Below the pieces are notes generated by a model. That model did no database searches and had not been told where the DNA came from. It saw only the letters and a list, made by a program, of their open reading frames with translations. The position numbers were made by a program, and so were the translations under genes. 64,000 nt of DNA from Bacteroidota bacterium (GTDB taxonomy: Bacteria; Bacteroidota; Bacteroidia; Bacteroidales; JAGONC01): positions 11,631-75,630 of the forward strand of contig JAPLDP010000036.1 in NCBI GenBank assembly GCA_026391695.1. The letters are read 5' to 3'. This document shows, piece by piece, positions 10,626 through 35,168 of the stretch. Numbering within the stretch: position 1 is the first letter of the stretch; every line of letters starts with the position of its first letter.

Positions 10626-10762
10626 TCAAAGAGATAAAAATCTGCTTTAACCTACAAAGTTACGTTCATGCTCCATTAAAATCAACTCCATTCTTTCTTT
10701 TAAATTAAACAAATTTATGTTCACAACATCATGCTGTATATTGATTATCCTGTAAAATGTAC

Positions 10763-10794: not shown

Positions 10795-10816
10795 TATTTA
10801 TTAACATTTTAACCGA

Positions 10817-12295
10817 TTATTTTTGAACGATCAGCTTCCTGGTTATCACAGCATTTCCACTTTCCATTCTGACCATGTAAATGCCATCGGGCAGTTGACT
10901 GACGTCGAGTGTTTTAACCAGCATACCCTGTGTGTACTGTATGGTTTCATCAATCATGTTTTGTCCTACAAGATTCATCACCGCAATTCTAATATTACCT
11001 GATCCTCCCTTAGCCAATCGCAGATAAACCCGCCCGGAGCAGGGATTTGGATACATGCTGACCAGGTGATCATTCAGCTCCAGCGGATCAATACCAACCC
11101 CCATGACGATAAATGACCATACCTCGCTCCATTCCGATGTATCTCTCTGGTGACAGGCTCTCACACGCCAGTAATAAACTGTAGCGCTGTCAAGTGCAGG
11201 TGATGGCAGCGTGAATGTTTGATTGGCCGTTGTACTGGTTGCGGGTAATATATGTGTAATGGGTTCGATAAAATCGGGCGAATGGTTGATCATGATTTCA
11301 TAGGACTTGATACCTGTCACTGCCTTCCATATGAAAGTAGGATAAATGGGAATGCCTATAGCAGAGTCACCGGGAGAGTTCAGTACAACCTGATTGATGA
11401 CGGTGAATTTCCAGGTCTCCATCCACTCTGTGGTGTCTTTAGCATGATAGGCCTTAACCCTCCAATAATATTTAACGCCAAAATTGAGGGTGTCGGCATA
11501 ATTCGTTGCCGTAGTCGTATTATATGTTACTGCATCAGAAAAGCTTGAATTTGTTGCCAGCTGATAGATATAACCAAGAGCACCATCAACGGCAATCCAT
11601 CTCATCTTTTCATCCGGCATAACGTCAACAGCATTGTTATCGGGTTCTTTCAGTGCAAATACAGAGATGACAGTAAAATTCCAGGCTACTGACCATACGG
11701 TGGTATCTTTGCTATGCCCGGCTTGTATCCGCCAGTAATATTTTGTCCCGAAAGAAAGGTCGCTAGTGGTCACCCTGTCAACACCGCTGGCCCATGGCAC
11801 AACAAACTCGGTCAAGGAAGCACTGTTAAAATCAAGAGTGATATCCATCTGAATTTTATAGAATGTCAGACCGGTAACTGGTTTCCAAATCAACTGAACA
11901 TTCGCATCCTGTTTAGTAGCATTATTGGAGGGTTTAGAAAGGTCAACGGTTTCGAGCACCGTGAATGACCTGACCTCACTCCATGCCGATGTTCCCGTGT
12001 TGTCAATGGCTCTGACTTTCCAGAAATACTGTGTGTTAAATAATAATCCGGATGTGTTGACGCTGGTCAGATCTGTAGAATAGTTCACAGGATTTGTAAA
12101 TGATGCGTCAAGAGCCACCTGCACCTCGTAATGCAAACCTATAGCACCTGTGACCGCCTCCCAGTCGAGTAACACATCAGGGGCCTGCTTTGTGGCAGCA
12201 TTAGCCGGTGTTTTCAACGCCGGAGTATAAATGGTCACTCCAGCAAATAGATTGAATGATACCAGCAATAAAATAACGGTAGAGATCCTTTTCAT
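10817..12295 (-). CDS. Secreted protein with about five FN3-like tandem modules and a T9SS type A sorting domain
   Basis: 492-aa ORF with a signal peptide. About five ~95-aa repeats each end in (Y/K)Y(F/Y)WR(V/I)xA...T(S/T)xWS..(W/R)xFTV. The C-terminal MYPNPCSGRVYLRL...GIYMVRMESGNAVITRKLIVQK is a type A CTD. Confidence 0.8.
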   Translation of the reverse strand: MKRISTVILLLVSFNLFAGVTIYTPALKTPANAATKQAPDVLLDWEAVTGAIGLHYEVQVALDASFTNPVNYSTDLTSVNTSGLLFNTQYFWKVRAIDNTGTSAWSEVRSFTVLETVDLSKPSNNATKQDANVQLIWKPVTGLTFYKIQMDITLDFNSASLTEFVVPWASGVDRVTTSDLSFGTKYYWRIQAGHSKDTTVWSVAWNFTVISVFALKEPDNNAVDVMPDEKMRWIAVDGALGYIYQLATNSSFSDAVTYNTTTATNYADTLNFGVKYYWRVKAYHAKDTTEWMETWKFTVINQVVLNSPGDSAIGIPIYPTFIWKAVTGIKSYEIMINHSPDFIEPITHILPATSTTANQTFTLPSPALDSATVYYWRVRACHQRDTSEWSEVWSFIVMGVGIDPLELNDHLVSMYPNPCSGRVYLRLAKGGSGNIRIAVMNLVGQNMIDETIQYTQGMLVKTLDVSQLPDGIYMVRMESGNAVITRKLIVQK

Positions 12296-12365
12296 GCCTG
12301 TTTATTTAAATAATGTTTAACCAAATATTTTAATTACTTATCATTAATGTATCCTGACGACCTGT

Positions 12366-19077: not shown

Positions 19078-19133
19078 CAGGTTACAGGTTGCAGGTTACA
19101 AGTTAAAGCTTCAAGCTTCAAACTACAGGTTAA
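19078..19133. repeat. Array of eight heptanucleotide units filling the flippase / upstream-gene spacer
   Basis: CAGGTTA CAGGTTG CAGGTTA CAAGTTA AAGCTTC AAGCTTC AAACTAC AGGTTAA. The array overlaps the last codons and stop of 19123..20832 and ends 6 nt before the flippase start codon. Confidence 0.7.
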
Positions 19134-20832
19134 AGATTCTTCTTAGTTTCAATGTGATTTTATTCCATAAGTGATACCTATCAAATATAAATCTTTTGCC
19201 GTCAAAAATGATATATTCTCCTGAAAGAGAAATGGTGTGTAATCCTTTATGATATTTCATTCTTTTTTCCTTATCCTTTACAAATTCAATGTATTTCACA
19301 GTTTCCTCTTCAAAGTGCCAGGGATCAAGTTTAATGATTTTATTGACGGCCACGCGTTCGCCGTATGTCACAGAACAATCCTGAGCAGGCCTGTGCAATT
19401 CGCCGGCTATGATAAATGGTGCGCCGGCCGGACGCGCTGAACAAACGTCGGTTTTCAGCGGATTATTGTTATGTGGCTTGTATTCTCCGAAGAGATCATT
19501 TGCATAATAAGCAAATAAATGCGTATCCGACAGGTGTTTTCTTGTAAAAAAGAGCCACCATAATTCCTGGTATTGAAATAGTGTCGGATCCACAGCATCT
19601 ATGCCTTCAAGGATTGTCTTGAAATGCACGAAAAGATCAGTTTCAGAGTCTAACCTGTAAACATTAACCTGCCTGCTGCCGGCCGACTCGGGTATGCAAT
19701 AGACTTGGCCTCCGCTTTCCAGAATATATGGGTAAGACAGGTGCCATGGCTCTTTTATCGCCGGTCTCCTGGATGAAACAACCCGGGTGACAGGATCAAA
19801 GCTGAAACGTGTAATGATTCCTTTGGACAACTTATAGTCATACTCTTCGCACATGATTTCCAACTGACCATTTCTTTCAAAAACAAAAGGATCCGCAAGG
19901 TACGTATGTCGCACAGGAATCGGAAGAAAGCCGCCATTCACCAGACCGTCCTGCTCAAAAAGCTGCTGCCGATCCATTCTAACGATGCTGATATTCCATT
20001 CCTCCGCTTTAAAAAGATCATCACAATAAAATGTTATCTTGTTGCGGAATCGTTTATAAAAGAATTTAAGCATCGTCCAGTTATGGGGAGTGCGATATAT
20101 TCTGGCTGCAGAAGAGCTCTCTTCACGGAACAGGCTGTCATAGCCGCAGTAAATGATGTCATTGGCAACCTGCAATGGCCATGGTGCTGTTTCGAAAAAC
20201 AGACGGTCTATATGAGCAGCATAGGAATGAAAAAGGGTCTTAAAAAAACCTTTCTTCAAGATGATCCCGGCATCCAGCCTGTTGGTAAGACGCTGAAGAA
20301 CAGCTCCATTAACAGGGTCGTCGAAACAGATTTCCCAGAATCCCGGAGGACCGCCACGATATTTCTGCTCATCGTCATGATGAAAAGACCAAACACCATA
20401 TTCGGCCGCATCAAGTATATCTCCCCGTATGATATTAAAACCAAATCTCAGGATGAAATCCAGTTCATATTCACGTATGACACTAATATCGGATGGAAAG
20501 AAATACTGCGAAAAATTTTCATTAATGGTTTGGCAGCGAATGACGGGAATGTTGCGTAATTCGTCAGCCAAGGACACCATTTTTTTTGCTTCAGGCCGGA
20601 AGCAATGATGCATATATTGGCGGTATAACAAATGAGAATAGGGGTAAGTTTGTAGCCTATCGAAAAGAGCGGATTTATCAGGGCTATGATCATCCATGAT
20701 AAGCAACATTGGCTGATGCCCTCCAGATATCAGATCCCTGATAGCCTGTGCTTGCCAGGCCTGGAATGTATAATCCCGGCACATGATGCCAAACTTCAAA
20801 TATTTTTTGCCTGAAGATGAAATATTATTCAT
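19123..20832 (-). CDS. Two-domain polysaccharide-locus protein: formyltransferase-like N-terminal fold fused to a propeller-like C-terminal domain of unknown function
   Basis: The ORF track starts at a GTG (20862); I prefer the ATG at 20832 (MNNISSSGKKYL...). The N-terminal half has a formyltransferase-like signature (...VWSFHHDDEQKYRGGPPGFWEI..DDPVNGAVLQRLTNRLDAGIIL). The C-terminal half is rich in beta-strand repeats. The product name is tentative. Confidence 0.55.
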   Translation of the reverse strand: MNNISSSGKKYLKFGIMCRDYTFQAWQAQAIRDLISGGHQPMLLIMDDHSPDKSALFDRLQTYPYSHLLYRQYMHHCFRPEAKKMVSLADELRNIPVIRCQTINENFSQYFFPSDISVIREYELDFILRFGFNIIRGDILDAAEYGVWSFHHDDEQKYRGGPPGFWEICFDDPVNGAVLQRLTNRLDAGIILKKGFFKTLFHSYAAHIDRLFFETAPWPLQVANDIIYCGYDSLFREESSSAARIYRTPHNWTMLKFFYKRFRNKITFYCDDLFKAEEWNISIVRMDRQQLFEQDGLVNGGFLPIPVRHTYLADPFVFERNGQLEIMCEEYDYKLSKGIITRFSFDPVTRVVSSRRPAIKEPWHLSYPYILESGGQVYCIPESAGSRQVNVYRLDSETDLFVHFKTILEGIDAVDPTLFQYQELWWLFFTRKHLSDTHLFAYYANDLFGEYKPHNNNPLKTDVCSARPAGAPFIIAGELHRPAQDCSVTYGERVAVNKIIKLDPWHFEEETVKYIEFVKDKEKRMKYHKGLHTISLSGEYIIFDGKRFIFDRYHLWNKITLKLRRIFNL

Positions 20833-20858
20833 TTTAACACCACTGGCGGTTAAAAAAA

Positions 20859-22205
20859 TCACCTGCTATATATCGCAGCATCATAGAGCTCATTGAGTAG
20901 CTTGCTTACTGCTTTTGTACCATAATTAAGTACTGTGTATTCCCTGATCTTTTCCTTGTCAAATTCGTTATGATGCACAAGCATCCATTCTATTTTTCTG
21001 AGGAGGTCATCCTCATCACCGGCCCTGACCAGCAAACCTCTGGTAGTATTAACAACCTCGGGAATCCCTCCCACTGCAGTGGCTACAACCGGTACGCCAC
21101 AGGCAAATGCCTCGTTGATCACGACTGGCAGGTTCTCATAGTTACTGAACAGAACCATAAAATCCGATGTGCTGATAGCTTCTACGAGATCCTTCCCTTC
21201 CAGTAGTCCCGTAAAATGCACCCACTCGGTCAATCCCAAATCCTCTGATCTTTTGATCATCCATTCCCGATCTATCCCTTCCCCGACCAGGTAGCATTCC
21301 CAGTCATCCCGTAGCACTGACAACCGTTTTAATACATTTAAAATGCCGGAAATATTCTTCGACCTATCCTCAAAACAAGACACATGAACCATTCTCTTTT
21401 TATGCAAGGCCCCAGGTTGCATTCCGCTATTCACCTTAAAAGGCAGGAACTTATCCGTATCCACCACATTGGGCAATATCCTGAAATTTTTATTGTACAA
21501 ATGGTATCGGAGCATAGCATTTTCAAGGTCCACAGTGGGTGTGGTCACAGCGGAAGCGTACCTGACCACAATTTTCGTCATCAGTTTTCTGAAACATCCC
21601 TTGTATGTATTGACTGATGGCAAGTATCGCGACCAGTGCTCGGTAATGATGTAAGGTGTTGATTTACAAATTTTGAGATACAGGGCAAATATACCTAACC
21701 GGGTGAGCACATGAACATGAATGACATCCGGTTTCCCGCGCTGTTTCAGGATATGCCGGTAGCCGATCAGATTTGCCTTTATGAACCGGCATGTATTAAT
21801 GAACTTGCTATAGGTATTACAGTTGGCAGTTGACAGTTGGCAGTTGACATTGCCATTGACCGTTAGCCGACTGCCGATCCCGACATGCGTCGGGACGTCA
21901 CTTCGTTCCGCTGCCGACTGCCGACCGTTGACTGCCGACTGCCAATCGTCGACTGCCAACTGCCGACTGCCGACTAAATAATACACCCTCACTGTAAAAA
22001 TACCCTGATCCTCAATCTCTTCAATCTCAAATTTTTTATCCATGCTCTCTGAAGCCTGAACATATAACACCGAAACCTTGCTAAACTGCGCCGCTACCAA
22101 AGCATGATTCCGCACAAATAATCCCCATAAAGGATCATACCTATGAGGGTACCAGCGGGGAAGAAAGAGGATGTGGTGCGGAGATTGCGGGGTCACCATG
22201 ATCAA
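20859..22205 (-). CDS. Glycosyltransferase family 4 (GT-B fold) carrying an in-frame ~50-aa insertion encoded by a palindromic heptamer element
   Basis: 448-aa ORF. The C-terminal half has the classic GT4 motif (FSNYENLPVVINEAFACGVPVVATAVGGIPEVV). The N-terminal domain is interrupted at nt 21820-21974. Confidence 0.8.
   Translation of the reverse strand: MIMVTPQSPHHILFLPRWYPHRYDPLWGLFVRNHALVAAQFSKVSVLYVQASESMDKKFEIEEIEDQGIFTVRVYYLVGSRQLAVDDWQSAVNGRQSAAERSDVPTHVGIGSRLTVNGNVNCQLSTANCNTYSKFINTCRFIKANLIGYRHILKQRGKPDVIHVHVLTRLGIFALYLKICKSTPYIITEHWSRYLPSVNTYKGCFRKLMTKIVVRYASAVTTPTVDLENAMLRYHLYNKNFRILPNVVDTDKFLPFKVNSGMQPGALHKKRMVHVSCFEDRSKNISGILNVLKRLSVLRDDWECYLVGEGIDREWMIKRSEDLGLTEWVHFTGLLEGKDLVEAISTSDFMVLFSNYENLPVVINEAFACGVPVVATAVGGIPEVVNTTRGLLVRAGDEDDLLRKIEWMLVHHNEFDKEKIREYTVLNYGTKAVSKLLNELYDAAIYSR
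21820..21974. repeat. Intragenic palindromic element: inverted arms of heptamer units around a central perfect hairpin
   Basis: The left arm is CAGTTGG CAGTTGA CAGTTGG CAGTTGA followed by degenerate units. The centre is CCCGAC-ATGC-GTCGGG (21879-21894). The right arm (21911-21973) is CTGCCGA x2, CCGTTGA, CTGCCGA, CTGCCAA, TCGTCGA, CTGCCAA, CTGCCGA x2. The reverse complement of the right-arm unit (TCGGCAG) matches the left-arm register (TTGGCAG). Confidence 0.8.
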
Positions 22206-22439: not shown

Positions 22440-23531
22440 ATGAACACCTGTAAACTCTGCCTGCTGAACGAAAACATCGATGGAGTGATCATTAATGCTG
22501 ACGGCATTTGCAATTACTGTTCGGGATATAGTCTCTACAAGCCGTATGGGGAGGAACAACTACTGAAGATATTTAAAAAAGCCGGCAGGAAACGCCGTCC
22601 GTACGATGCGCTGGTGCCGCTCAGCGGCGGAAAGGACAGCACCTATGTTCTTTACCTGGCGGTGAAAAAATACAAACTCAGGGTGCTGGCCTATACCCTT
22701 GACAATGGATTCATGAGTGAACTCGCCCTGAGGAATATTGAAAGTGCCTTAAAATCCTGCGGTGTCGATCATATCTGGTTCAGATATGATAATAACCTGA
22801 TTTATAAACTCTATCGCACAGCGCTGCTTCATTCGGGTGAAATATGCGGAATTTGCGGGACAGCCATTGAACGCACCATGCTGAAAGTATCGGAAGCCTT
22901 TCATACACCTCTTATCCTTCTCGGGCATTCACCTGTGGAGGATAATTCTTTCACCACAGAAGACCTGTATGATCAGACCAGAATTAAGGCCATTATGAAA
23001 CAAAATCCCGGCATATCGGCATCAGATATGCATCGTTTTCTGATCTATCCAAACCTCAACTTCATTTCAACTTTTATCCTGACAAAGCTGGGACGCTTTG
23101 GTAAGAAGATCAATCCACTCTATTTCATTGACATTCCCAGCGACAGGGAGATTTCGGAGATCCTGGTCAGGGAAATGGGATGGAACGATAGCAGTGCCTC
23201 GGAATATACACGGCACTTTGACTGCATTGCTGAGCCTTTTACAAATCATATCCGTGAAAAGCGATTCGGCTATTCACGTCGAATATGCCAGCTCAGCAAC
23301 ATGATCCGCCTCGGCGAACTGACACGCGAAAAAGCCGCGGAGATATTAAGCACTGATCAAAAAAATCCTGATCCGCCGTTTCTGGATGTCATCATGCAAA
23401 GGATGAACCTGTCGCAGGCAGATATTCAACAAGCCGTGGCAGTTGAAAGGAATGTATTCCAAGATGACGTGTCAGCAGCCAACCGGATTTTTGCCCTTGC
23501 GCGAAAAATCCTGAAAAGGCATAAACACTGA
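22440..23531 (+). CDS. N-acetyl sugar amidotransferase (WbpG-like PP-loop ATPase)
   Basis: 363-aa ORF with an N-terminal Cys cluster (CKLC...CNYC) followed by the PP-loop SGGKDS. This architecture is typical of the LPS/capsule amidotransferase family. Confidence 0.75.
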   Translation: MNTCKLCLLNENIDGVIINADGICNYCSGYSLYKPYGEEQLLKIFKKAGRKRRPYDALVPLSGGKDSTYVLYLAVKKYKLRVLAYTLDNGFMSELALRNIESALKSCGVDHIWFRYDNNLIYKLYRTALLHSGEICGICGTAIERTMLKVSEAFHTPLILLGHSPVEDNSFTTEDLYDQTRIKAIMKQNPGISASDMHRFLIYPNLNFISTFILTKLGRFGKKINPLYFIDIPSDREISEILVREMGWNDSSASEYTRHFDCIAEPFTNHIREKRFGYSRRICQLSNMIRLGELTREKAAEILSTDQKNPDPPFLDVIMQRMNLSQADIQQAVAVERNVFQDDVSAANRIFALARKILKRHKH

Positions 23532-23577: not shown

Positions 23578-25602
23578 TCACATTACCACAATCTTACCGA
23601 TGGCCGATGGCTGATGGCCGATGGCCGATATGCGATAGAAATAGATGCCGGATGGAAGGTCTTTTGCATTCCAGGTGACCTGATGGTCGCCTACAGACAG
23701 CAATTCATCCAGAATGGTTGCTATAACTTGTCCCAAGTTATTTATTACTTGGAGATTTACTTTTAAAGGCTCTTGTAACTGGATACTGAATGTGGTGTGT
23801 CCTGTAAAGGGATTGGGATAAACAGAACAGTAGCTTATGTCCATATTATCTGTTAATCCGACGCCACATGCTTCTTCAACCTCCTCCCGGCTGTTGCAAC
23901 CGGTTGCATTACCAGTGATAGCAATGGTTCCATTGGGATTAGCCAGGTAATCACATATACTTTGAACTTCACAGGTAGATAAAGAACTGTCAAAACAGAT
24001 ACATAGATTGTCTATCGATCCGGCAAAAATGTTGTCCAGCCCCCCCAGGCTCGTAAGAACCATATTTAAGCGAATATTCAGATCTCCACCGATGGTGGTC
24101 AAACCTTCCATCCCCATCAGGCTATTAAGGGCAGTGTTGTATCGAATAGTAAGATGCCCCCCAATGGAACTCAGATTTTCCAGCCCCATCAGGTTGGTCA
24201 ATGTATAGTTCCCTTCAATATTAAGGTATCCCCCGATGGAATTTAATCCTTCTATACCTGACAGGTCAGACAGTGCGTCGTTGTCGTTGATTTCAAAATC
24301 TTCCATGACGGAAGTCAACCCTCCAAGTCCTGACAGGCTTGTCAGGGCTTCATTGCTTCTAATATAAAGGTGTCCTTTTATGGAAGTCAAATGCTCTATA
24401 TTCGTCAAGCTGGTCAGTGCCTTGTTATATTCAATAGAAAGGTTTCCCCCGAGGGAAGTCAAGGCTTCCAGTCCCGTAAGACAAGTCAGAACATCGTTGT
24501 ATCCGATATAAAGGTTTCCTCCGATGGAAGTCAAAACCTCCAGTCCTGTCAGGCTGGTCAGTGTATTGTTCTCTTTAATACGAAGGTATCCCCCTATGGA
24601 ATGTAAACCTTCTAAACCAGTCAGGCTGATAAGGGCATCGTTGCCGATGATATCAAAACCTCCCATGATGGAAGTCAACCCTCCAAGTCCTGACAAGTAT
24701 CTCAGGGATTCATTGTATTCAATATAAAGGTCTCCTCCAAGGGAAGTCAAACTCTCCAGTCCGGTCAGGCTGGTCAGGTCATCGTTATAAACAATATAAA
24801 GATATCCTCCGATGAAAATTAAACCCTCCAGTCCAGTCAGGCTGGTTAGTATATTGTTCCCGTCAATATGGAGGTATCCCCCGACGGAAGTCAAATTCTC
24901 CAGTCCTGTCAGGTTAGTAAGTGCGTCGTTGCAAACGATTTCAAAATCATCCGTGATGGAAGTCAACCCGTCAAGTCCTGACAGACTTGTCAGGGCGTTG
25001 TTGCGTTCTATAGAAAGCCAGCCACCCATAGAAGTTAAATTCTCCAGTCCTGTCAGGCTGGTGAGAGCGTCATTGAATAAAACAGAGAGGCCTCCCCCAA
25101 TAGTTGTCAATCCCTTCAGTCCCGTCAGGCTGGTCAGGTTATTGTTTCCTTCAATATAAAAAACTCCTCCGATAGACGTCAAACCTTCTAATCCAATCAT
25201 ACTGGTCAGACTATAGTTTTGAGAAATAAAAATACTTCCCCCGATGGAAGTCACATTGTCCAGTCCCGTCAGACTAATCAGGCCGTTATTAAATTCAATA
25301 TAAAGGTCTCCCCCGATGGAAGTTACATTATCCAGTCCTGTCAGATTTATCAGGATGTTATTGTAATCAATATAAAGAATTCCCCCAATAGAAGTCAAAA
25401 CACTTAATCCGCTTAAATTGGTAATATCGTCTCCCGATATACTCACATCCCCCTCAATTTCCGTACAGCCGGGATAATTGGTCTGGAAATTATCAATTTC
25501 GGATTGGGTTGTAAATGTGATGCCTTCCGGCAGGCAGGATTGCGGTGACGCCGTTATCTGAATGAATATCAAAATAATAAATACAAGAGATGATCTTTTC
25601 AT
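23578..25602 (-). CDS. Leucine-rich-repeat surface protein with T9SS type A sorting domain
   Basis: 674-aa ORF with a signal peptide and ~20 tandem 24-aa units (LTSLTGLExLTSIGGxLxIxxNxx). The CTD is VYPNPFTGHTTFSIQL...GIYFYRISAIGHQPSAIGKIVVM. Confidence 0.85.
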   Translation of the reverse strand: MKRSSLVFIILIFIQITASPQSCLPEGITFTTQSEIDNFQTNYPGCTEIEGDVSISGDDITNLSGLSVLTSIGGILYIDYNNILINLTGLDNVTSIGGDLYIEFNNGLISLTGLDNVTSIGGSIFISQNYSLTSMIGLEGLTSIGGVFYIEGNNNLTSLTGLKGLTTIGGGLSVLFNDALTSLTGLENLTSMGGWLSIERNNALTSLSGLDGLTSITDDFEIVCNDALTNLTGLENLTSVGGYLHIDGNNILTSLTGLEGLIFIGGYLYIVYNDDLTSLTGLESLTSLGGDLYIEYNESLRYLSGLGGLTSIMGGFDIIGNDALISLTGLEGLHSIGGYLRIKENNTLTSLTGLEVLTSIGGNLYIGYNDVLTCLTGLEALTSLGGNLSIEYNKALTSLTNIEHLTSIKGHLYIRSNEALTSLSGLGGLTSVMEDFEINDNDALSDLSGIEGLNSIGGYLNIEGNYTLTNLMGLENLSSIGGHLTIRYNTALNSLMGMEGLTTIGGDLNIRLNMVLTSLGGLDNIFAGSIDNLCICFDSSLSTCEVQSICDYLANPNGTIAITGNATGCNSREEVEEACGVGLTDNMDISYCSVYPNPFTGHTTFSIQLQEPLKVNLQVINNLGQVIATILDELLSVGDHQVTWNAKDLPSGIYFYRISAIGHQPSAIGKIVVM
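23597..23638. repeat. Six heptanucleotide units inside the last 14 codons of the LRR/T9SS gene
   Basis: CCGATGG CCGATGG CTGATGG CCGATGG CCGATAT GCGATAG on the plus strand. This encodes ...RISAIGHQPSAIGK... of the CTD. Confidence 0.7.
23986..25425 (-). repeat. About 20 tandem 72-bp (24-aa) LRR units
   Basis: Counted from residue I60 to about residue 539 of the 674-aa product. Units 7, 11 and 16 are a distinct F(D/E)I variant. Confidence 0.8.
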
Positions 25603-25780: not shown

Positions 25781-26935
25781 TTACACGATCAGCTCACTGT
25801 TGGCTTGTAAAAATGCGATGATCTTATCAGGTTTTTTCGTTGATGTAGGTAAATTCAGGATGTGTTTCGATATATCGCAGGCAACAGGAATTTGTGCCTC
25901 ATCTACCTCCCACTTTTCGAGGCCTGATTCAACCGGATGAAGCGGCGAACAAAACCAGTCGCCGATTTCGATGTTGGCCTCTGCCGATTTCGATAAAAAT
26001 AAATCCTTGTCCTTGACCAGGAACGGATACCTGAGAAAGCAATGATCCGGATGCAGGCTCTCATCGACATAATATTTCCCATTCTTTCTTAGAAAGTCAG
26101 TATAAATCAAAGCATTGGATTTCCGAAGGCTAATCATTTCCTTATTCCGGGAAATGTTTTTTATACCTCTTTTAATCTGAATCGAACTGATGGATTTGAA
26201 ATAGTTTACCGGCATGTCGATGCCGGTAATCTCCCCTCCTGACGATGAGCCTATTATCAAATTGTTCCTACTCAGCCACCGGTATAGTTTCAACAACTGC
26301 CAGTATGTGTAAGGATTTATCAGTGTATCTTTAAAGAACAGCAGGGAACGAAGAATACACTTTTCAACAAAACCCGGTGCGACTAATGTATTATTGATGC
26401 AAACCATTTTTGACAGGAGCTCCGGATTATTAATTACAGTAAAGCCACCGATTCCGGTTGAAAACGGCTTGTTCCATTGTGTGGAGTAAAAAGCTGCATC
26501 GCAATATATGCCATTAGGCTTATCGTTATATGTTCCACCAAATCCATGTGCACAATCCTCAATAGCGTAAATGCTATTCTCTTTGGCCCATTTTGCGATC
26601 TCATCAACCTGCGACGACAGACCAAAAGTATTTTGTACGATGATGACCTTTGTTTTCGGTGTAACAGCATTTTTATACTGTGCCAATCCGGGATTTAAAG
26701 TCTTCCTGTCAATGTCAACATAAACAGGCTTTGCACCCAGATATTTTATTGCATTGGCCACCACCACACAGGTAAAGCCGGGTAAAATTATTTCATCCTC
26801 TCCGGCAACTTCCATTGCTTTCAGAATTGCATAGAGTGCCACCCTTCCTTTCCAGTAAAGAAAGATATTATCAGAACTTGACTGTAACACCTCCGCGATG
26901 GACTGTTTATATAATGCCTCTTTATGCATCGCCAT
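25781..26935 (-). CDS. DegT/DnrJ/EryC1/StrS-family sugar aminotransferase (PLP-dependent)
   Basis: 384-aa ORF with family-typical segments (ILPGFTCVVVANAI, VIIVQNTFG, AIEDCAHGFGG, FYSTQWNKPFSTGIGG containing the Lys). Confidence 0.8.
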   Translation of the reverse strand: MAMHKEALYKQSIAEVLQSSSDNIFLYWKGRVALYAILKAMEVAGEDEIILPGFTCVVVANAIKYLGAKPVYVDIDRKTLNPGLAQYKNAVTPKTKVIIVQNTFGLSSQVDEIAKWAKENSIYAIEDCAHGFGGTYNDKPNGIYCDAAFYSTQWNKPFSTGIGGFTVINNPELLSKMVCINNTLVAPGFVEKCILRSLLFFKDTLINPYTYWQLLKLYRWLSRNNLIIGSSSGGEITGIDMPVNYFKSISSIQIKRGIKNISRNKEMISLRKSNALIYTDFLRKNGKYYVDESLHPDHCFLRYPFLVKDKDLFLSKSAEANIEIGDWFCSPLHPVESGLEKWEVDEAQIPVACDISKHILNLPTSTKKPDKIIAFLQANSELIV

Positions 26936-27943
26936 TCATGAATGATGTAAAGTTCTATGCACGCTGAACAAACCGCAAAATGAACCTATGCCGTAAGAAA
27001 AATGCAGGATGTAAAAACCCCAGTAAAGATAAATGAATCTTGTACTCTTATCATGCATCTTTAAACAAGCAGAAATTACCACAATGTTGTAGAGTAAGAA
27101 AAACACGGCCGAAAACAGCAGGAACCACGTATTTAACAGAAAACCCAAAATAACAGGGATGACCAGTGAAAGGATAAACAGCAAGGGTACAAAATGCCGT
27201 AAACTTAATGAACTCACATGCTTTGTTATATATACGGTCACAATATTCCAGCGACCATTATTAAAATTATTTATCGCAAGCCCTTTGAAGTCTTCTCTTG
27301 CATAATAAGTAAAGCTTATCTCAGGTATCAAATATATTTTCCCTCCTGATCTTTTTAATCTTTTATTAAATTCAATGTCCTGATTTCTTATCAGATGGTC
27401 ATTAAATCCACCCATTTTTATCAGGGTTTCTTTTTTATAACAGCCAAATGCCACTGTGTCAACTTCCATAGGTTCTTTAGTCCCAATGCGGAAAAAACTG
27501 TCACCAACCCCTAAGGGTGCGGATAATAATTTTTTTATTGCATTCGCTTTGGGAGTTTTATTTATTGTATCTGTTATACAACTAACACCGACATTATCAG
27601 CTTGAAGGCTGATCAGGTTACTCACGAGAACCGAGATGTAATTTGACGGGTAGGATGCATGCGACCCTATAAGGATGATTATTTCTCCTTTGGCTTCTTT
27701 TGTTCCTATATTCACTGCATAGGAAACGTGCCTATAAGGATTATGTATCAGTTTAAAATTGGATAGATCTTTACATTTTTCTTTTATAATCCATTTGGTA
27801 TTATCTATACTTCCTCCATCAACAAATAAAACCTCAAGTAAATCACTGGGATAGTCCTGATTAATTATATCGGTTATTACCTGTTCGATGTACTTTTCCT
27901 CGTTATAAACAGGCATAATGACTGTTACCGTATATCTCATCAA
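26936..27943 (-). CDS. Glycosyltransferase family 2 with C-terminal transmembrane segments
   Basis: 335-aa ORF. The N-terminus VTVIMPVYNEEKYIEQ...FVDGGSIDNT is the GT2 DxD-type fold. The C-terminal ~90 aa are hydrophobic. It abuts the DegT gene with no spacer. Confidence 0.8.
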   Translation of the reverse strand: MMRYTVTVIMPVYNEEKYIEQVITDIINQDYPSDLLEVLFVDGGSIDNTKWIIKEKCKDLSNFKLIHNPYRHVSYAVNIGTKEAKGEIIILIGSHASYPSNYISVLVSNLISLQADNVGVSCITDTINKTPKANAIKKLLSAPLGVGDSFFRIGTKEPMEVDTVAFGCYKKETLIKMGGFNDHLIRNQDIEFNKRLKRSGGKIYLIPEISFTYYAREDFKGLAINNFNNGRWNIVTVYITKHVSSLSLRHFVPLLFILSLVIPVILGFLLNTWFLLFSAVFFLLYNIVVISACLKMHDKSTRFIYLYWGFYILHFSYGIGSFCGLFSVHRTLHHS

Positions 27944-28113
27944 TTAATATCCATTTATTGCCGAACCAATTCAGCCGTAAATTTAGGGAGGGAAATCCGG
28001 AAAAACTAACAGAGTCAAAAAAAATACCGGTCCATTATGCGGATATCGATTTTTATGAGCTGTGTACAGGAATCTGATTATTTATGTAAGTTTGCACGAA
28101 ATCATATACCTGA

Positions 28114-29094
28114 ATGAAAATCGAGTATTACCTGCCTGAGAAGGTTTTCACCAATGATGAACTTGTCACCATCTTTCCGAATCTGGAAGCCTCAAGAGTG
28201 GAAGAAAAATTGGGCATCAGGCAGAGGCATATCGCTTCAGCGGATGAAACGGCCCTGGATCTTGCCTTTGAGGCAGCTAAAAAGGTGCTGAATGATTTTG
28301 ACAAAGAAAAAATTGATTTTATTCTCCTTTGTACCCAAAGCCCTGATTATTTTCTTCCCACCAGTGCCTGCCTGTTACAAAGTAAACTTGGTATAAAGAA
28401 AAGCGCAGGAGCTCTTGATTTCAATCTGGGTAGTTCCGGATTCATTTATGGGCTGGCTTTGGCAAAAGGCCTTCTGCAAAGTCAGGTTGCTTCAAATGTA
28501 CTTCTCGTTAATGCTGAAACATATACTAAACATATACATCCGGATGACCGGGCTAACCGGAGCATTTTTGGAGATGGAGCGGCAGCCACAATCATCGGGA
28601 ATTCTGACAAGGATATCATAAAAGAATTTGTTTTGGGAACAGATGGTAAAGGATTCAGCAACCTGATTGTCACAAATGGCGCAATGCGTCACCCCTTTGG
28701 CGAATCGACCAATGGAACCATCGATGAAAATGGCAACTTTTTTTCACCGGATCATCTTTACATGAATGGCCCGGAAATTTTTAATTTCACCATTGAAAAT
28801 ATACCATTGCTGGTGGAGAATGTTCTGAAAAAAAATGACCTGACTTTAGATCAGATCGATTATTTTATTTTTCATCAGGCCAATAAATATATGCTTGAGT
28901 ACCTAAGGAAAAAGATTAAAATACCACAGGAAAAATACTACAACGATATTCTCATGACTGGTAACACTGTGGCTACCATTCCTATTGCTTTAAAGGAATC
29001 AATCGACAGGGGAATTGTCCATCCCGGGAATAAAATCCTTTTAGCCGGGTTTGGTGTCGGATATTCCTGGGGAGCTACTGTCATCGAGTTATAA
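28114..29094 (+). CDS. KASIII (FabH)-like enzyme with Ser in place of the catalytic Cys; probable acyl-CoA:ACP transacylase
   Basis: 326-aa ORF that aligns along its length with FabH. The FabH motif AFDVAAAC(112)AGF corresponds here to ALDFNLGS(107)SGF (AGT at 28432-28434). The His (FIFHQAN) and Asn (GNTVAT) of the triad are retained. Confidence 0.8.
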   Translation: MKIEYYLPEKVFTNDELVTIFPNLEASRVEEKLGIRQRHIASADETALDLAFEAAKKVLNDFDKEKIDFILLCTQSPDYFLPTSACLLQSKLGIKKSAGALDFNLGSSGFIYGLALAKGLLQSQVASNVLLVNAETYTKHIHPDDRANRSIFGDGAAATIIGNSDKDIIKEFVLGTDGKGFSNLIVTNGAMRHPFGESTNGTIDENGNFFSPDHLYMNGPEIFNFTIENIPLLVENVLKKNDLTLDQIDYFIFHQANKYMLEYLRKKIKIPQEKYYNDILMTGNTVATIPIALKESIDRGIVHPGNKILLAGFGVGYSWGATVIEL

Positions 29095-29123
29095 AGGACA
29101 TTATTTTTTAACATTAGCTTTAC

Positions 29124-29363
29124 ATGATGACCACAAAGGAGTTTATTAAAAAATTGACAGAAGCGCTGGAGTTTTCCGGTGAGACTATCATTGAGAATAC
29201 AAATTTACGTTCCATTAAAGGATATGATTCAATGTCGGTAATGACAATCATTGCCTTTGTGGATGAACATTTCTCAAAGAAGCTGACGGCCCGCCAGCTG
29301 GCAGCAATCACAACTGTCAGAAGCCTGAAAGAACTCATTGGATTGGAACATTTTACTGATTAA
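29124..29363 (+). CDS. Dedicated acyl/peptidyl carrier protein (DltC/ACP-like)
   Basis: 79-aa ORF with the phosphopantetheine attachment motif GYDSMSVMTIIAFV. It lies 30 nt after the KASIII gene. Confidence 0.8.
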   Translation: MMTTKEFIKKLTEALEFSGETIIENTNLRSIKGYDSMSVMTIIAFVDEHFSKKLTARQLAAITTVRSLKELIGLEHFTD

Positions 29364-29376
29364 GGACTGAATACCT

Positions 29377-29511
29377 ATGAATGATCCTTTCTCACTGGAA
29401 AGAAAAAGAATAGTCATCACCGGCGCATCATCCGGGATTGGAAGGTGGGTGGCTATTGAGTGGTTAAGGAAAGGAACTTCTTTACTGAATGGAGGCTATT
29501 CAGCCAAATAA
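29377..29511 (+). pseudogene. Short-chain dehydrogenase/reductase (FabG-like) remnant with an internal in-frame deletion, leaving a 44-codon mini-ORF
   Basis: Manual translation gives MNDPFSLERKRIVITGASSGIGRWVAIEWLRKGTSLLNGGYSAK*. It contains the N-terminal Rossmann motif TGASSGIG and an SDR C-terminus-like tail (..NGGYSAK). The ~200 aa normally between them are missing. Confidence 0.65.
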
Positions 29512-29547
29512 ATTATTGAACCGGTTAAGCTCCTGAATAATCAGCTT

Positions 29548-31059
29548 ATGTTTTTCACTTCATTTCATTTCTTCATCTTCTTTCCGGTAGTTGTTCTTAT
29601 TTATTATTTTATCCCGCACCGATTCCGCTGGATTTGGCTTTTACTCACCAGTTCTGTCTTTTATCTGGCCTTCAGCTGGAAATACCTGCTTCTGTTCTTT
29701 GGTGTTATACTTGTCAATTATTTCATCGGAATCAAAATATATACTTCTGACGGGCATTTCAGAAAAAAGCTCTATATCACCGGAATCATCGTCAATATCC
29801 TTATCCTTTGCTTCTTTAAGTACTTCAATTATTTAGCTATTGATTTTACCAAAATTGCAGAGTTCCTTCATCTTCATTATCCCGATCAATTCGTGAACAT
29901 CATCCTGCCTCTTGGATTATCCTATTTAATTTTTACGGCCATTTCATATTTGATCGATATTAAGCGACAGGAGATACATTCTGAAAGACACATAGGTATT
30001 CTGGCTTCGTATTTTCTGTTTTTCCCGAAAGTGGCACAGGGTCCTATTGAAAGAGCAGGACACGTATTGCCTCAGTTTCACAAGAAGCATCATTTTGATT
30101 ATGATGGGTTTACTGCAGGACTGAAACTGATGGCATGGGGATTTTTTAAGAAACTGGTCATGGCCGACAGTCTTGCAGTATTTGTGAATGCCGTGTATTC
30201 CAACCCTCAAAACAGCCATGGGCTGGTTTTAATAATCGGCACCGTATGTTTTGCTTTTCAACTCTATGCCGACTTTTCAGGTTATACCGACATAGCTCTC
30301 GGAGCGGCACAGGTATTAGGATTTGACCTCATGCAGAACTTTCGCAGACCATATCTTGCCCGATCGGTCAGGGACTTCTGGACCCGCTGGCATATTAGCC
30401 TCTCATCATGGTGCAGCGATTATGTTTTTCTGCCTATCGTTGAGCATACCTATGATCTTAAAAGAAAGCTAAAAAAAGTCAAATTTCTTCACAGACTCAG
30501 TGCAGAAAAGATAATGTATGTAGCAGCAACTCTTACAACTTTCATCATAATTGGCATTTGGCATGGAGTAGGATGGAATTACCTTATAGTAGGTCTATTA
30601 TTCGGCTTTTATGTCAGCTTTGACATGCTTACGAAAAACCTCAGCAGGAAGGTAAACATTAAAACTGGTATTACAAAACGTCCTCTTCTTTTTCAAAATA
30701 TCCAGATCGTAACGACTTTCTTTATGCTCTGTCTCCCATGGATTTTCTTCAGGGCAAATACGATGAATGATGCGGTTATCATGATCCAAAACCTGTTTCA
30801 GGGATGGTCATTACAGGAAATAAAAAAATCCTTTGTTTTATTATATCATAACGGGATAAATGAGCGGTTGATTATTATCATGTTTTTGTCAACCCTGTTG
30901 CTGATTATAACAGACATTTTATCAGAGAAAAGAGACATTTTACTGAGGATTGCTGAGAAGCCGTTATTTATCCGGTGGGCCATCTATTACCTGCTCATCA
31001 TAGCAATAATTGCTTTCAGCACGACTGAAAGTAAACAGTTTATATATATGCAGTTCTAA
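29548..31059 (+). CDS. MBOAT-family membrane O-acyltransferase (DltB/AlgI-like)
   Basis: 503-aa polytopic ORF with the signature FWTRWHISLSSW and a second conserved His in IGIWHGVGWNY. Confidence 0.85.
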   Translation: MFFTSFHFFIFFPVVVLIYYFIPHRFRWIWLLLTSSVFYLAFSWKYLLLFFGVILVNYFIGIKIYTSDGHFRKKLYITGIIVNILILCFFKYFNYLAIDFTKIAEFLHLHYPDQFVNIILPLGLSYLIFTAISYLIDIKRQEIHSERHIGILASYFLFFPKVAQGPIERAGHVLPQFHKKHHFDYDGFTAGLKLMAWGFFKKLVMADSLAVFVNAVYSNPQNSHGLVLIIGTVCFAFQLYADFSGYTDIALGAAQVLGFDLMQNFRRPYLARSVRDFWTRWHISLSSWCSDYVFLPIVEHTYDLKRKLKKVKFLHRLSAEKIMYVAATLTTFIIIGIWHGVGWNYLIVGLLFGFYVSFDMLTKNLSRKVNIKTGITKRPLLFQNIQIVTTFFMLCLPWIFFRANTMNDAVIMIQNLFQGWSLQEIKKSFVLLYHNGINERLIIIMFLSTLLLIITDILSEKRDILLRIAEKPLFIRWAIYYLLIIAIIAFSTTESKQFIYMQF

Positions 31060-32009
31060 TGCAAACACGGTTTAAAGAATTATGTATTAAACTTTTTCTA
31101 TTTCTGCTTCCTTTTATGATGCTATTCTCCTGGATTGAATATCAGGCAAGAAGGCTTCCAAATAGCTATGAGCAGAAAAAAAGAAGTTTTGAGAGCCAGC
31201 GTCAATCAATAAAAATACTGGTTCTTGGATCGTCACATGCCTCCAAGGGAATAAATCCCGCATTTTTCTCCTGTACCGGCTTCAATTTCAGCAACAGCTC
31301 ACAATCGTTGTATCATGACACACAACTCTGTTTAAAATATATCGATGAACTCCCTCAGCTTAAAGGAGTTATTATTGATATCTCGTACATTTCACTCTAT
31401 TATGATCTGAAGGATACACCGGAGAAATGGAGAGATTATTTTTACTATCATTATTTCGGCATTAAGCGGCCTTCACTGGATCTGTGCGATCCAAAAGGGG
31501 TGACATATACTGCTCTTTATACCAGGGGATTTATCACTGACCTTGTATTGTGCAGGATCGATCCCAAAAAGGAATTTGGTGATATACAGCCGACAGGTTG
31601 GGAAAGAGTACCGCACCCTGCTGACAGCAGTGTCATTTCAGATTCTGCAGGATTTCAGCGGGCGACATTTCATAACTCATTGATCATCAAACAGAATTTT
31701 ATTTTAAATTGCGGTTACCTGGAGGATATGATCCGTCTCCTGCAGAAGAGAAAGATTGCCGTCTGTCTGGTCAGTCTTCCTGTTTATAAAACCTATTCGA
31801 AATTTATGGATCCGGATATTGAACGGCAAAACCACCAGTACATTGCAGAGTTATGCCAAAAATATAGCACTGAATACTATGATTTTTCTACGGACGCAAG
31901 TTTCACAAAAGAAGATTTCAGCGATAATGACCATTTGAGTATTTCCGGAGCAGAAAAAATCAGCCGGATCCTTGACGGGTTAATTATATCGAAGCTATGT
32001 AATCAGTGA
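31059..32009 (+). CDS. DltD/AlgJ-like SGNH-type extracytoplasmic acyl-transfer protein
   Basis: 316-aa ORF whose start overlaps the MBOAT stop (TAATG). It has an N-terminal TM anchor, a block-I-like VLGSSHASKG and a C-terminal DxxH (DNDHLS). Confidence 0.6.
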   Translation: MQTRFKELCIKLFLFLLPFMMLFSWIEYQARRLPNSYEQKKRSFESQRQSIKILVLGSSHASKGINPAFFSCTGFNFSNSSQSLYHDTQLCLKYIDELPQLKGVIIDISYISLYYDLKDTPEKWRDYFYYHYFGIKRPSLDLCDPKGVTYTALYTRGFITDLVLCRIDPKKEFGDIQPTGWERVPHPADSSVISDSAGFQRATFHNSLIIKQNFILNCGYLEDMIRLLQKRKIAVCLVSLPVYKTYSKFMDPDIERQNHQYIAELCQKYSTEYYDFSTDASFTKEDFSDNDHLSISGAEKISRILDGLIISKLCNQ

Positions 32010-32072: not shown

Positions 32073-32756
32073 ATGAAAGATTATTACAGTGCGAAGCTTT
32101 CAGCCATGAGTCTGTGGCAATGTTATGAGCTGGCGCCACCGCGCATTCAGCAATATATGAAAGCGGAAGCCGACCATGTGGTAAACAACATACACAACAA
32201 TGATCTGGTGCTGGAACTGGGATGCGGTTATGGCCGGTTATTGCCATTTTTTGCCGCGAAAGCAAGGATGGTGATTGGCATCGATACCTCCCGTTCAAGT
32301 ATTTTACTGGGTCGTAAGCTGCTCTCAGATTTATCGAATTGTATGCTGCTGCAAATGAATGCCATACACCTCGCCTTCCCCGATAATATGTTCGATGTGG
32401 TTGTTTGCATTCAGAACGGGATATCGGCATTCCATGTGGACCAGGAATTACTCATTAGGGAGAGCATTCGTGTGACCAAAAACGGGGGAAAGGTACTCTT
32501 TTCAAGTTATTCCGAAAAGATCTGGCAACAACGTTTGGAATGGTTTCACAGGCAGTCGGCTGCCGGCCTCCTCGGTGAAATAGATACGAATAAAACAAGG
32601 GAAGGTACAATCGTATGTCATGACGGATTTACTGCCACCACTGTCGGACCGGAACAATTCAAAACTCTGACAAAGCCAATTAAAAATATCAAGGTGAATA
32701 TCGTCGAAGTGGATGAGTCGAGCCTGTTCTGTGAGATAATTCCGGTTAAAAAGTAA
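32073..32756 (+). CDS. Class I SAM-dependent methyltransferase
   Basis: 227-aa ORF with SAM-binding motif I VLELGCGYGRL and post-I IGIDTS. Confidence 0.8.
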   Translation: MKDYYSAKLSAMSLWQCYELAPPRIQQYMKAEADHVVNNIHNNDLVLELGCGYGRLLPFFAAKARMVIGIDTSRSSILLGRKLLSDLSNCMLLQMNAIHLAFPDNMFDVVVCIQNGISAFHVDQELLIRESIRVTKNGGKVLFSSYSEKIWQQRLEWFHRQSAAGLLGEIDTNKTREGTIVCHDGFTATTVGPEQFKTLTKPIKNIKVNIVEVDESSLFCEIIPVKK

Positions 32757-33872: not shown

Positions 33873-34205
33873 GTGAGTAAGCAATTTCCCTTACATTCAG
33901 ACTGATTAAGCAGGACTAAGCTTCAAACGCTTTTTCTGAAAGCGGCATGGGTTGTTATAAATTACTCAAAGAACTGCTGGCCAAAATGTGTGAATGACAT
34001 TCTTCATTTGTTTTCTTCGTAAATTAGCCATGCCATTACGGCGAATCTGATGCCTCATGCTTAATCCAGCTGCGAGGCAGAAATGGAAACTACCCGTTTG
34101 GCAATCACTGGCAGCTATGGCCTGCACTCGATATTCTGTTTGGAAGCAAAGAGTAATTTATTGATAGTAAGATACAATTTTACAATCAAACTGGAGGATA
34201 AACTT

Positions 34206-35168
34206 ATGATTAAAGAGATCACAGTTGAAAATCTTGACACAAGGACCTTCATTGATGAGAAGGTCAGTGAGATTAAACAGACAGTCAGTACTGGACTGGC
34301 TATTAACGCGCTCTCAGGAGGCGTTGATTCATCCACTGTGACCATGCTTGGGCATCGAGCCCTGGGCAAACGTCTCAGGACTGTCTTCATCGAAAACGGG
34401 TTGATGCGTGAAGGCGAGCCTGAACAGGTGGTGCATTTCTTCGAAAAACTTGGTGTCAGGGTGGAAGTCATCGATGCCAGTCAGGAGTTTTTCGCAGCAC
34501 TAAAAGGACTCACCGACCCGGAAGCAAAACGTGAGGCAATCACGCAAACCTTTTACCGGTACGTCTTCGGCCGACTTGTGAAGGAAAGCGGGGCAAAACA
34601 TCTGCTCCAGGGAACTATACTTACTGATGTTGATGAGACTGTGGCGGGCATCAAACGGCAGCACAATGTCTTCGAGCAGCTTGGCATAAATCCGCAGGAA
34701 GCTTTCGGTTACCATATTATAGAACCGCTCATTCAGTTACGGAAGGATGGGGTCAGAAAAGTCGGCAAAGCACTCGGATTGCCTGAAGGACTGTTTGACC
34801 GCATACCATTCCCCGGACCGGCCCTGTCAGCGCGCGTTATAGGCGAAGTGACACCCGATCGCATAGCAACAGTCCGCAAAGCTACCGTCATAGTCGAACG
34901 ATTGCTGAAAAGCACCGGCGCATTTCAATATATGGCCATCCTGCATGAAGACCGCGTGACCGGTATGCGTGACGGCAAGCGCGATTTCGGGCAACAAATT
35001 GAAGTACGCTGCTGGGACAGCATCGATGCACGGACAGCTACACCAACAAAGCTTCCCTTCGAATTGCTTGAAAAACTTGCGAACGAAGTTATCCGGCAGG
35101 TGCCAGGTGTAGTAAGCATCACATATAATATCACAACCAAACCTCCTTCAACCATCGAGGCTGTCTAA
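34206..35168 (+). CDS. Stand-alone GMP synthase ATP-pyrophosphatase subunit-like protein (PP-loop plus GMP-synthase C-terminal dimerisation domain, no GATase domain)
   Basis: The start was moved to ATG 34206 (MIKEITVENL...). The PP-loop is SGGVDSS. The C-terminal PFPGPALSARVIGEV... and the final TKPPSTIEAV resemble the GuaA C-terminus. The upstream 41 codons of the track ORF look non-coding. Confidence 0.7.
   Translation: MIKEITVENLDTRTFIDEKVSEIKQTVSTGLAINALSGGVDSSTVTMLGHRALGKRLRTVFIENGLMREGEPEQVVHFFEKLGVRVEVIDASQEFFAALKGLTDPEAKREAITQTFYRYVFGRLVKESGAKHLLQGTILTDVDETVAGIKRQHNVFEQLGINPQEAFGYHIIEPLIQLRKDGVRKVGKALGLPEGLFDRIPFPGPALSARVIGEVTPDRIATVRKATVIVERLLKSTGAFQYMAILHEDRVTGMRDGKRDFGQQIEVRCWDSIDARTATPTKLPFELLEKLANEVIRQVPGVVSITYNITTKPPSTIEAV

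Follow-up and report, generated by a model that had tools for sequence, protein, structure and literature searches.

This report concerns a stretch of 64,000 nucleotides from a Bacteroidota bacterium (Bacteroidales; JAGONC01), positions 11,631 to 75,630 of contig JAPLDP010000036.1 in assembly GCA_026391695.1, which is called the window throughout, and in particular four intact genes on its plus strand which encode, in order, a ketoacyl synthase of the FabH family (KASIII), an acyl carrier protein (ACP) and a membrane-bound O-acyltransferase (MBOAT) followed by a protein of the SGNH type. These four genes form one rare operon in a Bacteroidota surface-polysaccharide locus. An initial annotation, made from the sequence alone, had placed five open reading frames (ORFs) here, in the order KASIII, carrier protein, remnant of a short-chain dehydrogenase/reductase (SDR), MBOAT and DltD-like protein, and had suggested that all five be submitted to profile searches. 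An ORF check of the window recovers every one of them at the coordinates assigned to it, and the searches, which match KASIII, PF00550, the N-terminus of adh_short and MBOAT and give sub-threshold matches only for the DltD-like protein, bear out the order. The overlap TAATG, in which the stop codon of the MBOAT gene meets the start codon of the SGNH gene, can be seen in the sequence at 31057-31061.

The KASIII gene (28114..29094, plus strand) encodes a protein of 326 amino acids which matches the NCBIfam model NF006829 with 268.8 bits, against a cut-off of 249, and also matches the Pfam domains ACP_syn_III and ACP_syn_III_C. At the level of the family the protein belongs to FabH/KASIII, but its triad is Ser107-His254-Asn284, with serine in place of the cysteine of the usual Cys-His-Asn triad. 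The serine codon, AGT at 28432-28434, aligns with the catalytic cysteine position (Cys112 of E. coli FabH), and the same alignment finds the histidine and the asparagine retained. In the closest PDB entry, 3gwa (E 9e-91), the motif reads NLGCSG, where the window protein has NLGSSG. Among the 120 best database homologues, serine occurs only in the window protein and in one protein that is 98% identical to it, while cysteine occupies the position in 118/118 of the others; in an alignment of 92 sequences, comprising KASIII proteins taken from the loci and E. coli FabH, the three sequences of the window lineage have serine and the other 89 of 89 have cysteine. Of 114 columns that 93% or more of the 118 homologues conserve, the window protein deviates at two, L94I and C107S. 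The codon is AGT in the window, AGC in a second sister assembly, L083, and in the sister strain L082 (a Joint Genome Institute, JGI, metagenome contig whose KASIII is 98% identical to that of the window), and TGT or TGC in relatives; because the strains thus differ synonymously within the derived codon, a sequencing error is excluded. The initial annotation had proposed that the enzyme puts a short acyl, 3-oxoacyl or 3-hydroxyacyl group on the carrier. The last two products are doubtful because serine replaces the catalytic cysteine, and a simple loaded acyl group is the likelier.

The ACP gene (29124..29363, plus strand) encodes 79 amino acids, with a DSM phosphopantetheine site at Ser36 (codon 29229-29231) and a PF00550 score of 28.5 bits. 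The protein has weak similarity to ACPs of the fatty acid synthase (FAS) type in the PDB, is FAS-ACP-like rather than DltC-like, and is orthologous to the ACPs of gene trios in which KASIII, ACP and a ketoreductase are encoded together (phmmer E values of 1e-14 to 1e-28). The gene ends 184 bp upstream of the MBOAT gene, and in the interval lies a plus-strand ORF of 44 codons (29377..29511) which matches the N-terminus of adh_short. In profile searches this ORF matches only the first 30 or so residues of short-chain dehydrogenases, and alignment of both its termini with the intact SDRs of 253-258 amino acids found at the same position in relatives reveals that about the first 37 codons of the reductase (…ITGASSGIGR…SLL) are fused in frame to its last seven (NGGYSAK and the stop). 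The ORF is the relic of a 3-ketoacyl-ACP reductase created by an in-frame internal deletion, which agrees with the inactivated ketoreductase of the initial annotation, and the whole 139-bp relic stretch is absent from the sister strain.

When the window is compared with the sister strain, KASIII differs by 33 synonymous and 8 non-synonymous changes and the ACP by 4 and 1, which correspond to ratios of non-synonymous to synonymous divergence (dN/dS) of 0.062 and 0.067, at dS values of 0.08-0.17; these ratios lie below those of the flanking genes, which are 0.115 for the MBOAT, 0.109 for the SGNH protein and 0.187 for the glycosyltransferase GT2. Three assemblies carry both ORFs at full length. 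The serine-bearing KASIII and its ACP are under strong purifying selection following the loss of the reductase.

The MBOAT gene (29548..31059, plus strand) encodes 503 amino acids and scores 62.3 bits with PF03062 (cut-off 27). Among the NCBIfam models TIGR04091 (DltB) fits best, but its 151.8 bits fall below the cut-off of 375 and do not qualify the protein as a DltB equivalog, and DltB entries are its only sequence relatives in the PDB. The predicted catalytic residue His282 (codon 30391-30393, plus strand) lies in RWHISLSSW, which aligns with the RWHMSLS motif of DltB. The protein ends with FIYMQF (31039-31056, plus strand; Tyr500 codon 31045-31047), an instance of the FxYxxF motif of the acyl-Tyr shuttle, which is C-terminal in PatA, AlgI and WssH and is supplied in trans by DltX in the case of DltB (PMC12148441). 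C-terminal motifs of the same type are found in the MBOATs of the related loci L082, L168, L171, L173, L131 and L141. The DltB-type reading given by the initial annotation has to be corrected in this respect: with the Tyr motif fused to it, the protein belongs to the PatA/AlgI type and is not a DltB served by a DltX. An identical MBOAT also occurs in a Logan assembly. In the sister strain (L082 3741-5252) the JGI annotation calls the MBOAT as 388 amino acids together with an antisense ORF of 76 amino acids, while the full frame of 503 amino acids is intact. About 20 nucleotides before the MBOAT start (TCCTGAAnAATCAGCnTATG; window 29527-29550, L168 9325-9348) are conserved between the window and L168 although the proteins are only 60% identical; they may have come down with the cassette as a common junction or a common signal for translation initiation.

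The partner of the MBOAT (31059..32009, plus strand; 316 amino acids; DltD/DUF1574/LB_356-like) gives sub-threshold matches to PF07611 (27.9 bits against a cut-off of 29.1) and to PF04914, DltD (21.9 against 22.7), and a sequence search of the PDB with it returned nothing meaningful. Alignment of the protein locates the SGNH motifs at GSSH (31227-31238), Asn76 and DNDH (31923-31934), all on the plus strand, and G57, S58, S59, N76 and H292 are invariant across 36 homologues. An AlphaFold2 model of the protein has a pLDDT of 96.4 and an N-terminal helix at residues 2-31, and a Foldseek search with this model ranks DltD (6o93, TM-score ~0.44) first, followed by GDSL/SGNH esterases and by PatB. 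Because of the invariant residues, the confident model with its N-terminal helix and the Foldseek matches, the protein is predicted to be a membrane-anchored SGNH transferase. The resemblance of the pair to DltB and DltD, noted in the initial annotation, is corroborated by the TIGR04091 match, the PDB relatives and the Foldseek ranking.

A first scan of the GTDB genomes with the MBOAT pointed to two unrelated halves, and it was the contexts of the KASIII and of closer MBOAT homologues that changed this view. Relatives of the KASIII with 52-72% identity are nearly always found, in context look-ups, in a KASIII-ACP-reductase trio, whose commonest neighbours are LbH acyltransferases (25 loci), GT4 glycosyltransferases (19), NDP-sugar 4,6-dehydratases (18), DegT aminotransferases (18) and FabD-like transacylases (10), with GNAT and AAC(3)-like acyltransferases also among them. 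Three loci carry a reductase-less cassette like that of the window: L168, with the order PMT_2, KASIII, ACP, MBOAT (503 amino acids), SGNH and Wzy and an ACP-MBOAT spacer of 93 bp; L173, which is almost identical to L168; and L171, with the order KASIII, ACP, MBOAT, SGNH, flippase, GT2 and Wzy and a spacer of 10 bp. Relative to the window, the KASIII proteins of these loci are 64-70% identical and the MBOATs 52-60% identical, with ACP-MBOAT spacers of 10-93 bp, and the KASIII of L168 and L171 retains the cysteine in a cassette that lacks the reductase. A reductase relic was also sought in the 93-bp spacer of L168, where the alignment is unconvincing. In two further loci, L131 and L132, a reductase-less KASIII-ACP pair is accompanied by an unrelated MBOAT (34% identity) and an SGNH protein 5 kb away, while the nearest KASIII relatives of these two loci (79-82% identical) have the reductase present and the MBOAT absent.

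The association between the loss of the reductase and the presence of an MBOAT was evaluated over lineages ascertained by their KASIII; these were dereplicated at a threshold of 90% identity, and each had no less than 1.5 kb of sequence beyond the ACP. An MBOAT is present in four of the lineages without a reductase and absent from one, and is present in one of the lineages with a reductase and absent from 28, so that the two traits, a lost reductase and an MBOAT, are correlated (one-sided Fisher test, p = 5e-4; p = 2.9e-3 once the window lineage is removed). A co-occurrence analysis of this kind had been suggested in the initial annotation, and its outcome is divided: the reductase-less cassette recurs, but none of the 80 MBOAT relatives considered below (0/80) lies near a KASIII or an ACP. 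The same division applies to the claim that the carrier protein feeds the MBOAT, which is favoured by the recurrence of the cassette in L168, L173 and L171 and by the reductase-less KASIII-ACP with MBOAT in L131 and L132, although most relatives of each half are unlinked.

Acyltransferases that might use the carrier protein in place of the MBOAT were searched for with 11 representative phmmer queries, which comprised N-acyltransferases, one AT3 and one FabD-like protein. Neither the whole 64-kb window nor L168, L171 or L173 gave an LbH, GNAT, AAC(3)-like or Acetyltransf_9-like N-acyltransferase or an AT3, and in the window the FabD-like query had no match either. Because no acyltransferase of the kinds associated with the trio is present in these four loci, the MBOAT-SGNH pair is the sole visible client of the carrier protein.

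We tentatively propose that the four intact genes encode a single pathway for the O-acylation of a surface polysaccharide, in which a KASIII with a serine nucleophile loads the ACP, which in turn feeds the MBOAT-SGNH pair. The gene content, the catalytic motifs, the SGNH fold, the recurrence of the cassette and the purifying selection can be read directly from the data; from these we infer each of the transfers and the identity of the acyl group. The KASIII, which has neither the condensing cysteine nor a ketoreductase partner, would act as a loader that places a short unextended acyl group, in the simplest case acetyl, on the phosphopantetheine arm of the ACP, either by direct transfer from acyl-CoA to ACP, as with a KASIII of the Ser-nucleophile DpsC type, or by decarboxylation of malonyl-ACP. 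The acyl-ACP would then dock on the MBOAT from the cytoplasmic side, in the manner of DltC on DltB, and for DltB a carrier protein is the known acyl donor (PMC12148441). His282 of the MBOAT would pass the acyl group to Tyr500 of the C-terminal FIYMQF shuttle at the outer face, from which the SGNH partner would accept it on Ser58/59 and esterify a polysaccharide hydroxyl with it. On the most parsimonious interpretation, neither condensation nor keto-reduction is required any longer in this lineage. The operon may possibly represent the first carrier-protein-dependent O-acylation of a polysaccharide by an MBOAT-SGNH pair outside Dlt, with a KASIII converted to a loader and a housekeeping MBOAT-SGNH pair captured by an N-acyl-sugar cassette.

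Several observations weigh against this proposal. A census of the best 80 MBOAT relatives from GTDB species genomes (27-47% identity; Bacteroidota, Firmicutes, Planctomycetota, Cyanobacteria and other groups) found no KASIII or ACP within 8 kb of any of them, while in the majority of these loci iterated profile searches placed an SGNH partner as the next gene downstream. Because the pair recurs in most of the 80 loci without either gene, it is autonomous. Conversely, 28 of the 29 trio lineages that contain a reductase have no MBOAT. The closest relative of the window MBOAT, P0122 (62-63% identity), stands in a RuvB-QueG-MBOAT-SGNH context that lacks both KASIII and ACP, a context shared by the sister clades of 499 amino acids, and the MBOAT tree groups the cassette MBOATs in a clade of 503 amino acids that includes P0122. 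Because P0122, within this clade, and the sister clades share a housekeeping context, the adjacent cassettes of the three lineages may descend from one ancestral capture or juxtaposition, which leaves about two to three independent events, an approximate number in that the neighbour-joining trees carry no support values and the contexts of the 503-amino acid clade are a partial census. It is clear that close relatives of the MBOAT function with no ACP of their own, and the ACPs of the cassette loci resemble those of the nearest trios, with no sequence signature that sets them apart. The triad of the KASIII is Ser-His-Asn and not the Ser-His-Asp of DpsC, and the case for coupling is drawn from gene neighbourhood and sequence in a handful of lineages. 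PatA, which has the same fused Tyr-motif architecture, uses acetyl-CoA, and MBOAT-SGNH systems other than Dlt are stated in the 2025 PatAB paper to lack a carrier protein (PMC12148441).

The main rival explanation is that the operon consists of two unconnected modules whose adjacency is fortuitous: an MBOAT-SGNH pair that O-acetylates the polysaccharide from acetyl-CoA, as PatA/PatB does, and a KASIII-ACP pair that supplies acyl groups to N-acylate the amino sugar product of the neighbouring DegT aminotransferase, with an acyltransferase encoded elsewhere and a housekeeping FabG if reduction is needed. We regard this explanation as somewhat less likely than the proposed pathway. Each of the modules does occur alone, the MBOAT-SGNH pair without KASIII or ACP in most of the 80 loci and in many phyla, and the trio without an MBOAT in 28 lineages, with LbH acyltransferases, DegT and 4,6-dehydratases as companions in the 25, 18 and 18 loci counted above. 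The acetyl-CoA donor of PatA (PMC12148441) fits such an arrangement, as does the wfpC-G cassette of Flavobacterium psychrophilum, which has been interpreted as making a hydroxyacyl-ACP for amino-sugar N-acylation (PMC6519341), and a DegT gene adjoins the cassette in the window and is present in L171. Independent modules do not, however, explain why the trio-type N-acyltransferase is missing from the window, L168, L171 and L173, why L168 has no DegT within 7 kb, why reductase loss follows MBOAT presence, or why the order of ACP followed by MBOAT, with spacers of 10-93 bp, has been kept while the sequences diverged to 52-70% identity, and the change from cysteine to serine speaks against normal chain building. 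The initial annotation had itself offered the synthesis of a hydroxyacyl chain for amino-sugar N-acylation as an alternative role; this is the canonical role of the intact trio, but the window lacks an N-acyltransferase of the trio type.

It is also conceivable, though improbable, that the two halves are coupled, as the initial annotation proposed, and the serine KASIII still condenses, joining acetyl-CoA to malonyl-ACP so that a 3-oxobutanoyl group, or a 3-hydroxybutanoyl group if FabG acts in trans, is exported by the MBOAT-SGNH pair. Ser enzymes of the DpsC type can also condense (PMC12664062), the in-frame relic shows an ancestral KASIII-ACP-SDR-MBOAT-SGNH arrangement, the cysteine is kept in the reductase-less cassettes L168 and L171, and the window enzyme retains the His and Asn residues used in decarboxylation and condensation. 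The repeated loss of a dedicated reductase at MBOAT-linked loci is nevertheless a poor fit to a 3-hydroxyacyl product, and the cysteine that has been replaced here is invariant in about 200 relatives. We know of no O-linked 3-oxoacyl esters on polysaccharides, which likewise counts against continued condensation. Finally, the idea that the KASIII and the ACP are decaying, functionless leftovers of a broken trio, which the 44-codon remnant of the reductase, its disappearance from the sister strain and the loss of the catalytic cysteine might suggest, is highly improbable and was rejected, since dN/dS is about 0.06 for both genes, 112 of the 114 conserved columns are intact, the serine codon has changed synonymously between strains and neither ORF is truncated in the three assemblies, the selection analysis having largely refuted it.

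Some of the related loci have arrangements that deserve description in their own right. Locus L141 (3361-10888) encodes in one operon DegT, GT2, a methyltransferase, an MBOAT, KASIII, ACP, reductase and a protein of 320 amino acids, so that an intact trio directly follows the MBOAT; the latter is 40% identical to that of the window, and no SGNH partner is in view. The 320-amino acid protein after the reductase has no Pfam match and is GNAT-like by eye, and it was considered and rejected as a DltD-like protein. A four-gene arrangement of KASIII, ACP, second KASIII and reductase recurs in L100, L107, L120 (7977-11111), L122, L135 and L163, and matches the layout of F. psychrophilum wfpC-F, which has been predicted to synthesize a 3,5-dihydroxyhexanoyl group. 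The RuvB-QueG-MBOAT-SGNH context is seen around the closest MBOAT-SGNH relatives outside the cassette in several Bacteroidota metagenome contigs, namely L170 (7001-9447), L172 (1002-3460) and the P0129 contig, and suggests a core envelope O-acylation system.

The polysaccharide-locus setting described in the initial annotation is present but loose. Domain searches identify, on the minus strand, GT2, DegT, a cargo gene of the type IX secretion system (T9SS), GT4, a GINT1_N-like protein and a flippase; downstream, the plus strand encodes a methyltransferase, a protein resembling NAD epimerases, a PP-loop ATPase and GH92. The flippase, GT4, GT2 and DegT genes are there, but they lie on the opposite strand with the T9SS cargo gene interposed. 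GT2 (26936-27943, minus strand) and DegT (25781-26935, minus strand) are divergent to the KASIII operon, an arrangement kept in the sister strain. At 28087..28094 on the plus strand, about 20 nucleotides 5' of the KASIII start, the sequence reads TAAGTTTG (TAnnTTTG), which we take to be a candidate promoter of the Bacteroidetes -7 type, while a scan of 27.8-35.3 kb for sigma-70 promoters and terminators gave the same counts as shuffled sequence. A class I S-adenosylmethionine methyltransferase gene (32073..32756, plus strand), 63 bp 3' of the SGNH gene, is kept in the sister strain and not in the other cassette loci, and stands outside the four-gene core.

Other genes of the window lie further from the operon. 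Between GT4 and the flippase, a protein of 579 amino acids (19123-20862, minus strand) carries a GINT1_N domain (PF24793, E 5.8e-31), which is named for glucosamine inositolphosphorylceramide transferase 1, and the first 320 residues of this protein match no family. Proteins resembling PP-loop ATPases are encoded on both sides of the locus (22440-23531 and 34083-35168, both plus strand); one has a weak QueC-like match and the other a GMP_synt_C domain with NAD-synthase-like matches, and the Logan gene call of the second begins 123 nucleotides further downstream. Very large T9SS cargo proteins with Por_Secre_tail or CHU_C domains are encoded in series at 1863-15278 and 23578-25602 (minus strand), and one cargo protein with LRR/receptor-L domains separates DegT from the remaining glycosyltransferase genes. 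The T9SS sorting domains are indicative of Bacteroidota, and so is the annotation of a KASIII identical to that of the window, which assigns it to a Bacteroidetes MAG.

The importance of the operon depends on whether its two halves are coupled. Peptidoglycan, alginate, cellulose and teichoic acids are among the polymers that receive acyl groups from MBOAT-SGNH pairs. In the current view only Dlt among these systems is fed by a carrier protein, the others being fed by acyl-CoA (PMC12148441). If the proposed pathway is correct, the recurrent KASIII-ACP-MBOAT-SGNH operon would constitute an intermediate architecture which combines a Dlt-like donor with a fused shuttle like that of Pat and Alg, the choice of donor in the MBOAT-SGNH class would be more plastic than has been believed, acyl groups other than acetyl could be put on Bacteroidota surface glycans, and a FabH-type condensing enzyme would have been repurposed in nature through a single swap of its nucleophile. 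If the halves are not coupled, the locus would contain an ordinary O-acetylation pair beside a degenerate or remodelled N-acyl cassette.

Literature searches found no described KASIII-ACP-MBOAT-SGNH system, in agreement with the statement in the initial annotation that no characterized example of the architecture was known. The KASIII and the ACP of the window are orthologous to those of the widespread trio in N-acyl cassettes of O-antigen loci, such as F. psychrophilum wfpC-wfpG (60-72% identity), and the relic in the window attests to a former reductase; the window differs in that the reductase is deleted, the cysteine is replaced by serine, there is no PglD-like or other N-acyltransferase, and the MBOAT-SGNH pair follows the ACP. 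DpsC, a priming ketosynthase of type II polyketide synthases, has a KASIII fold and a serine nucleophile, and it acylates itself with groups from short acyl-CoAs that it then transfers directly to its ACP (PMC12664062), which is the activity proposed for the window KASIII. The latter, however, has a Ser-His-Asn triad, belongs to a FabH-like clade which otherwise has cysteine throughout, and has no polyketide synthase context, so that it would be a functional analogue of DpsC rather than a member of its family.

In the Dlt system, which D-alanylates the teichoic acids of Gram-positive bacteria, as in the window, a small carrier protein is encoded with an MBOAT and a membrane-anchored SGNH protein, and DltB is the only sequence relative of the MBOAT with a solved structure, while DltD is the best structural match of its partner. 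The window departs from Dlt in having no DltA, since neither the operon nor the flanking region encodes an AMP-binding protein and a KASIII-fold protein takes its place; in the FAS/ACP-like rather than DltC-like character of the carrier protein; in the fusion of the Tyr motif to the MBOAT's C-terminus, with no separate DltX; in a TIGR04091 score far under the cut-off; and in its occurrence in a Gram-negative Bacteroidota with a polysaccharide as target. The pairs PatA/PatB, AlgI/AlgJ(X) and WssH/WssI share with the window an MBOAT with the invariant histidine and the FxYxxF motif and a downstream SGNH partner with Ser, His and Asp. Those systems use, or presumably use, acetyl-CoA and have no carrier protein, whereas here, in several lineages, a KASIII and an ACP are part of the operon. 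By MBOAT family, histidine, fused FxYxxF motif and adjacent SGNH partner, the MBOAT-SGNH pair of the window nevertheless has every testable feature of the PatA/PatB type.

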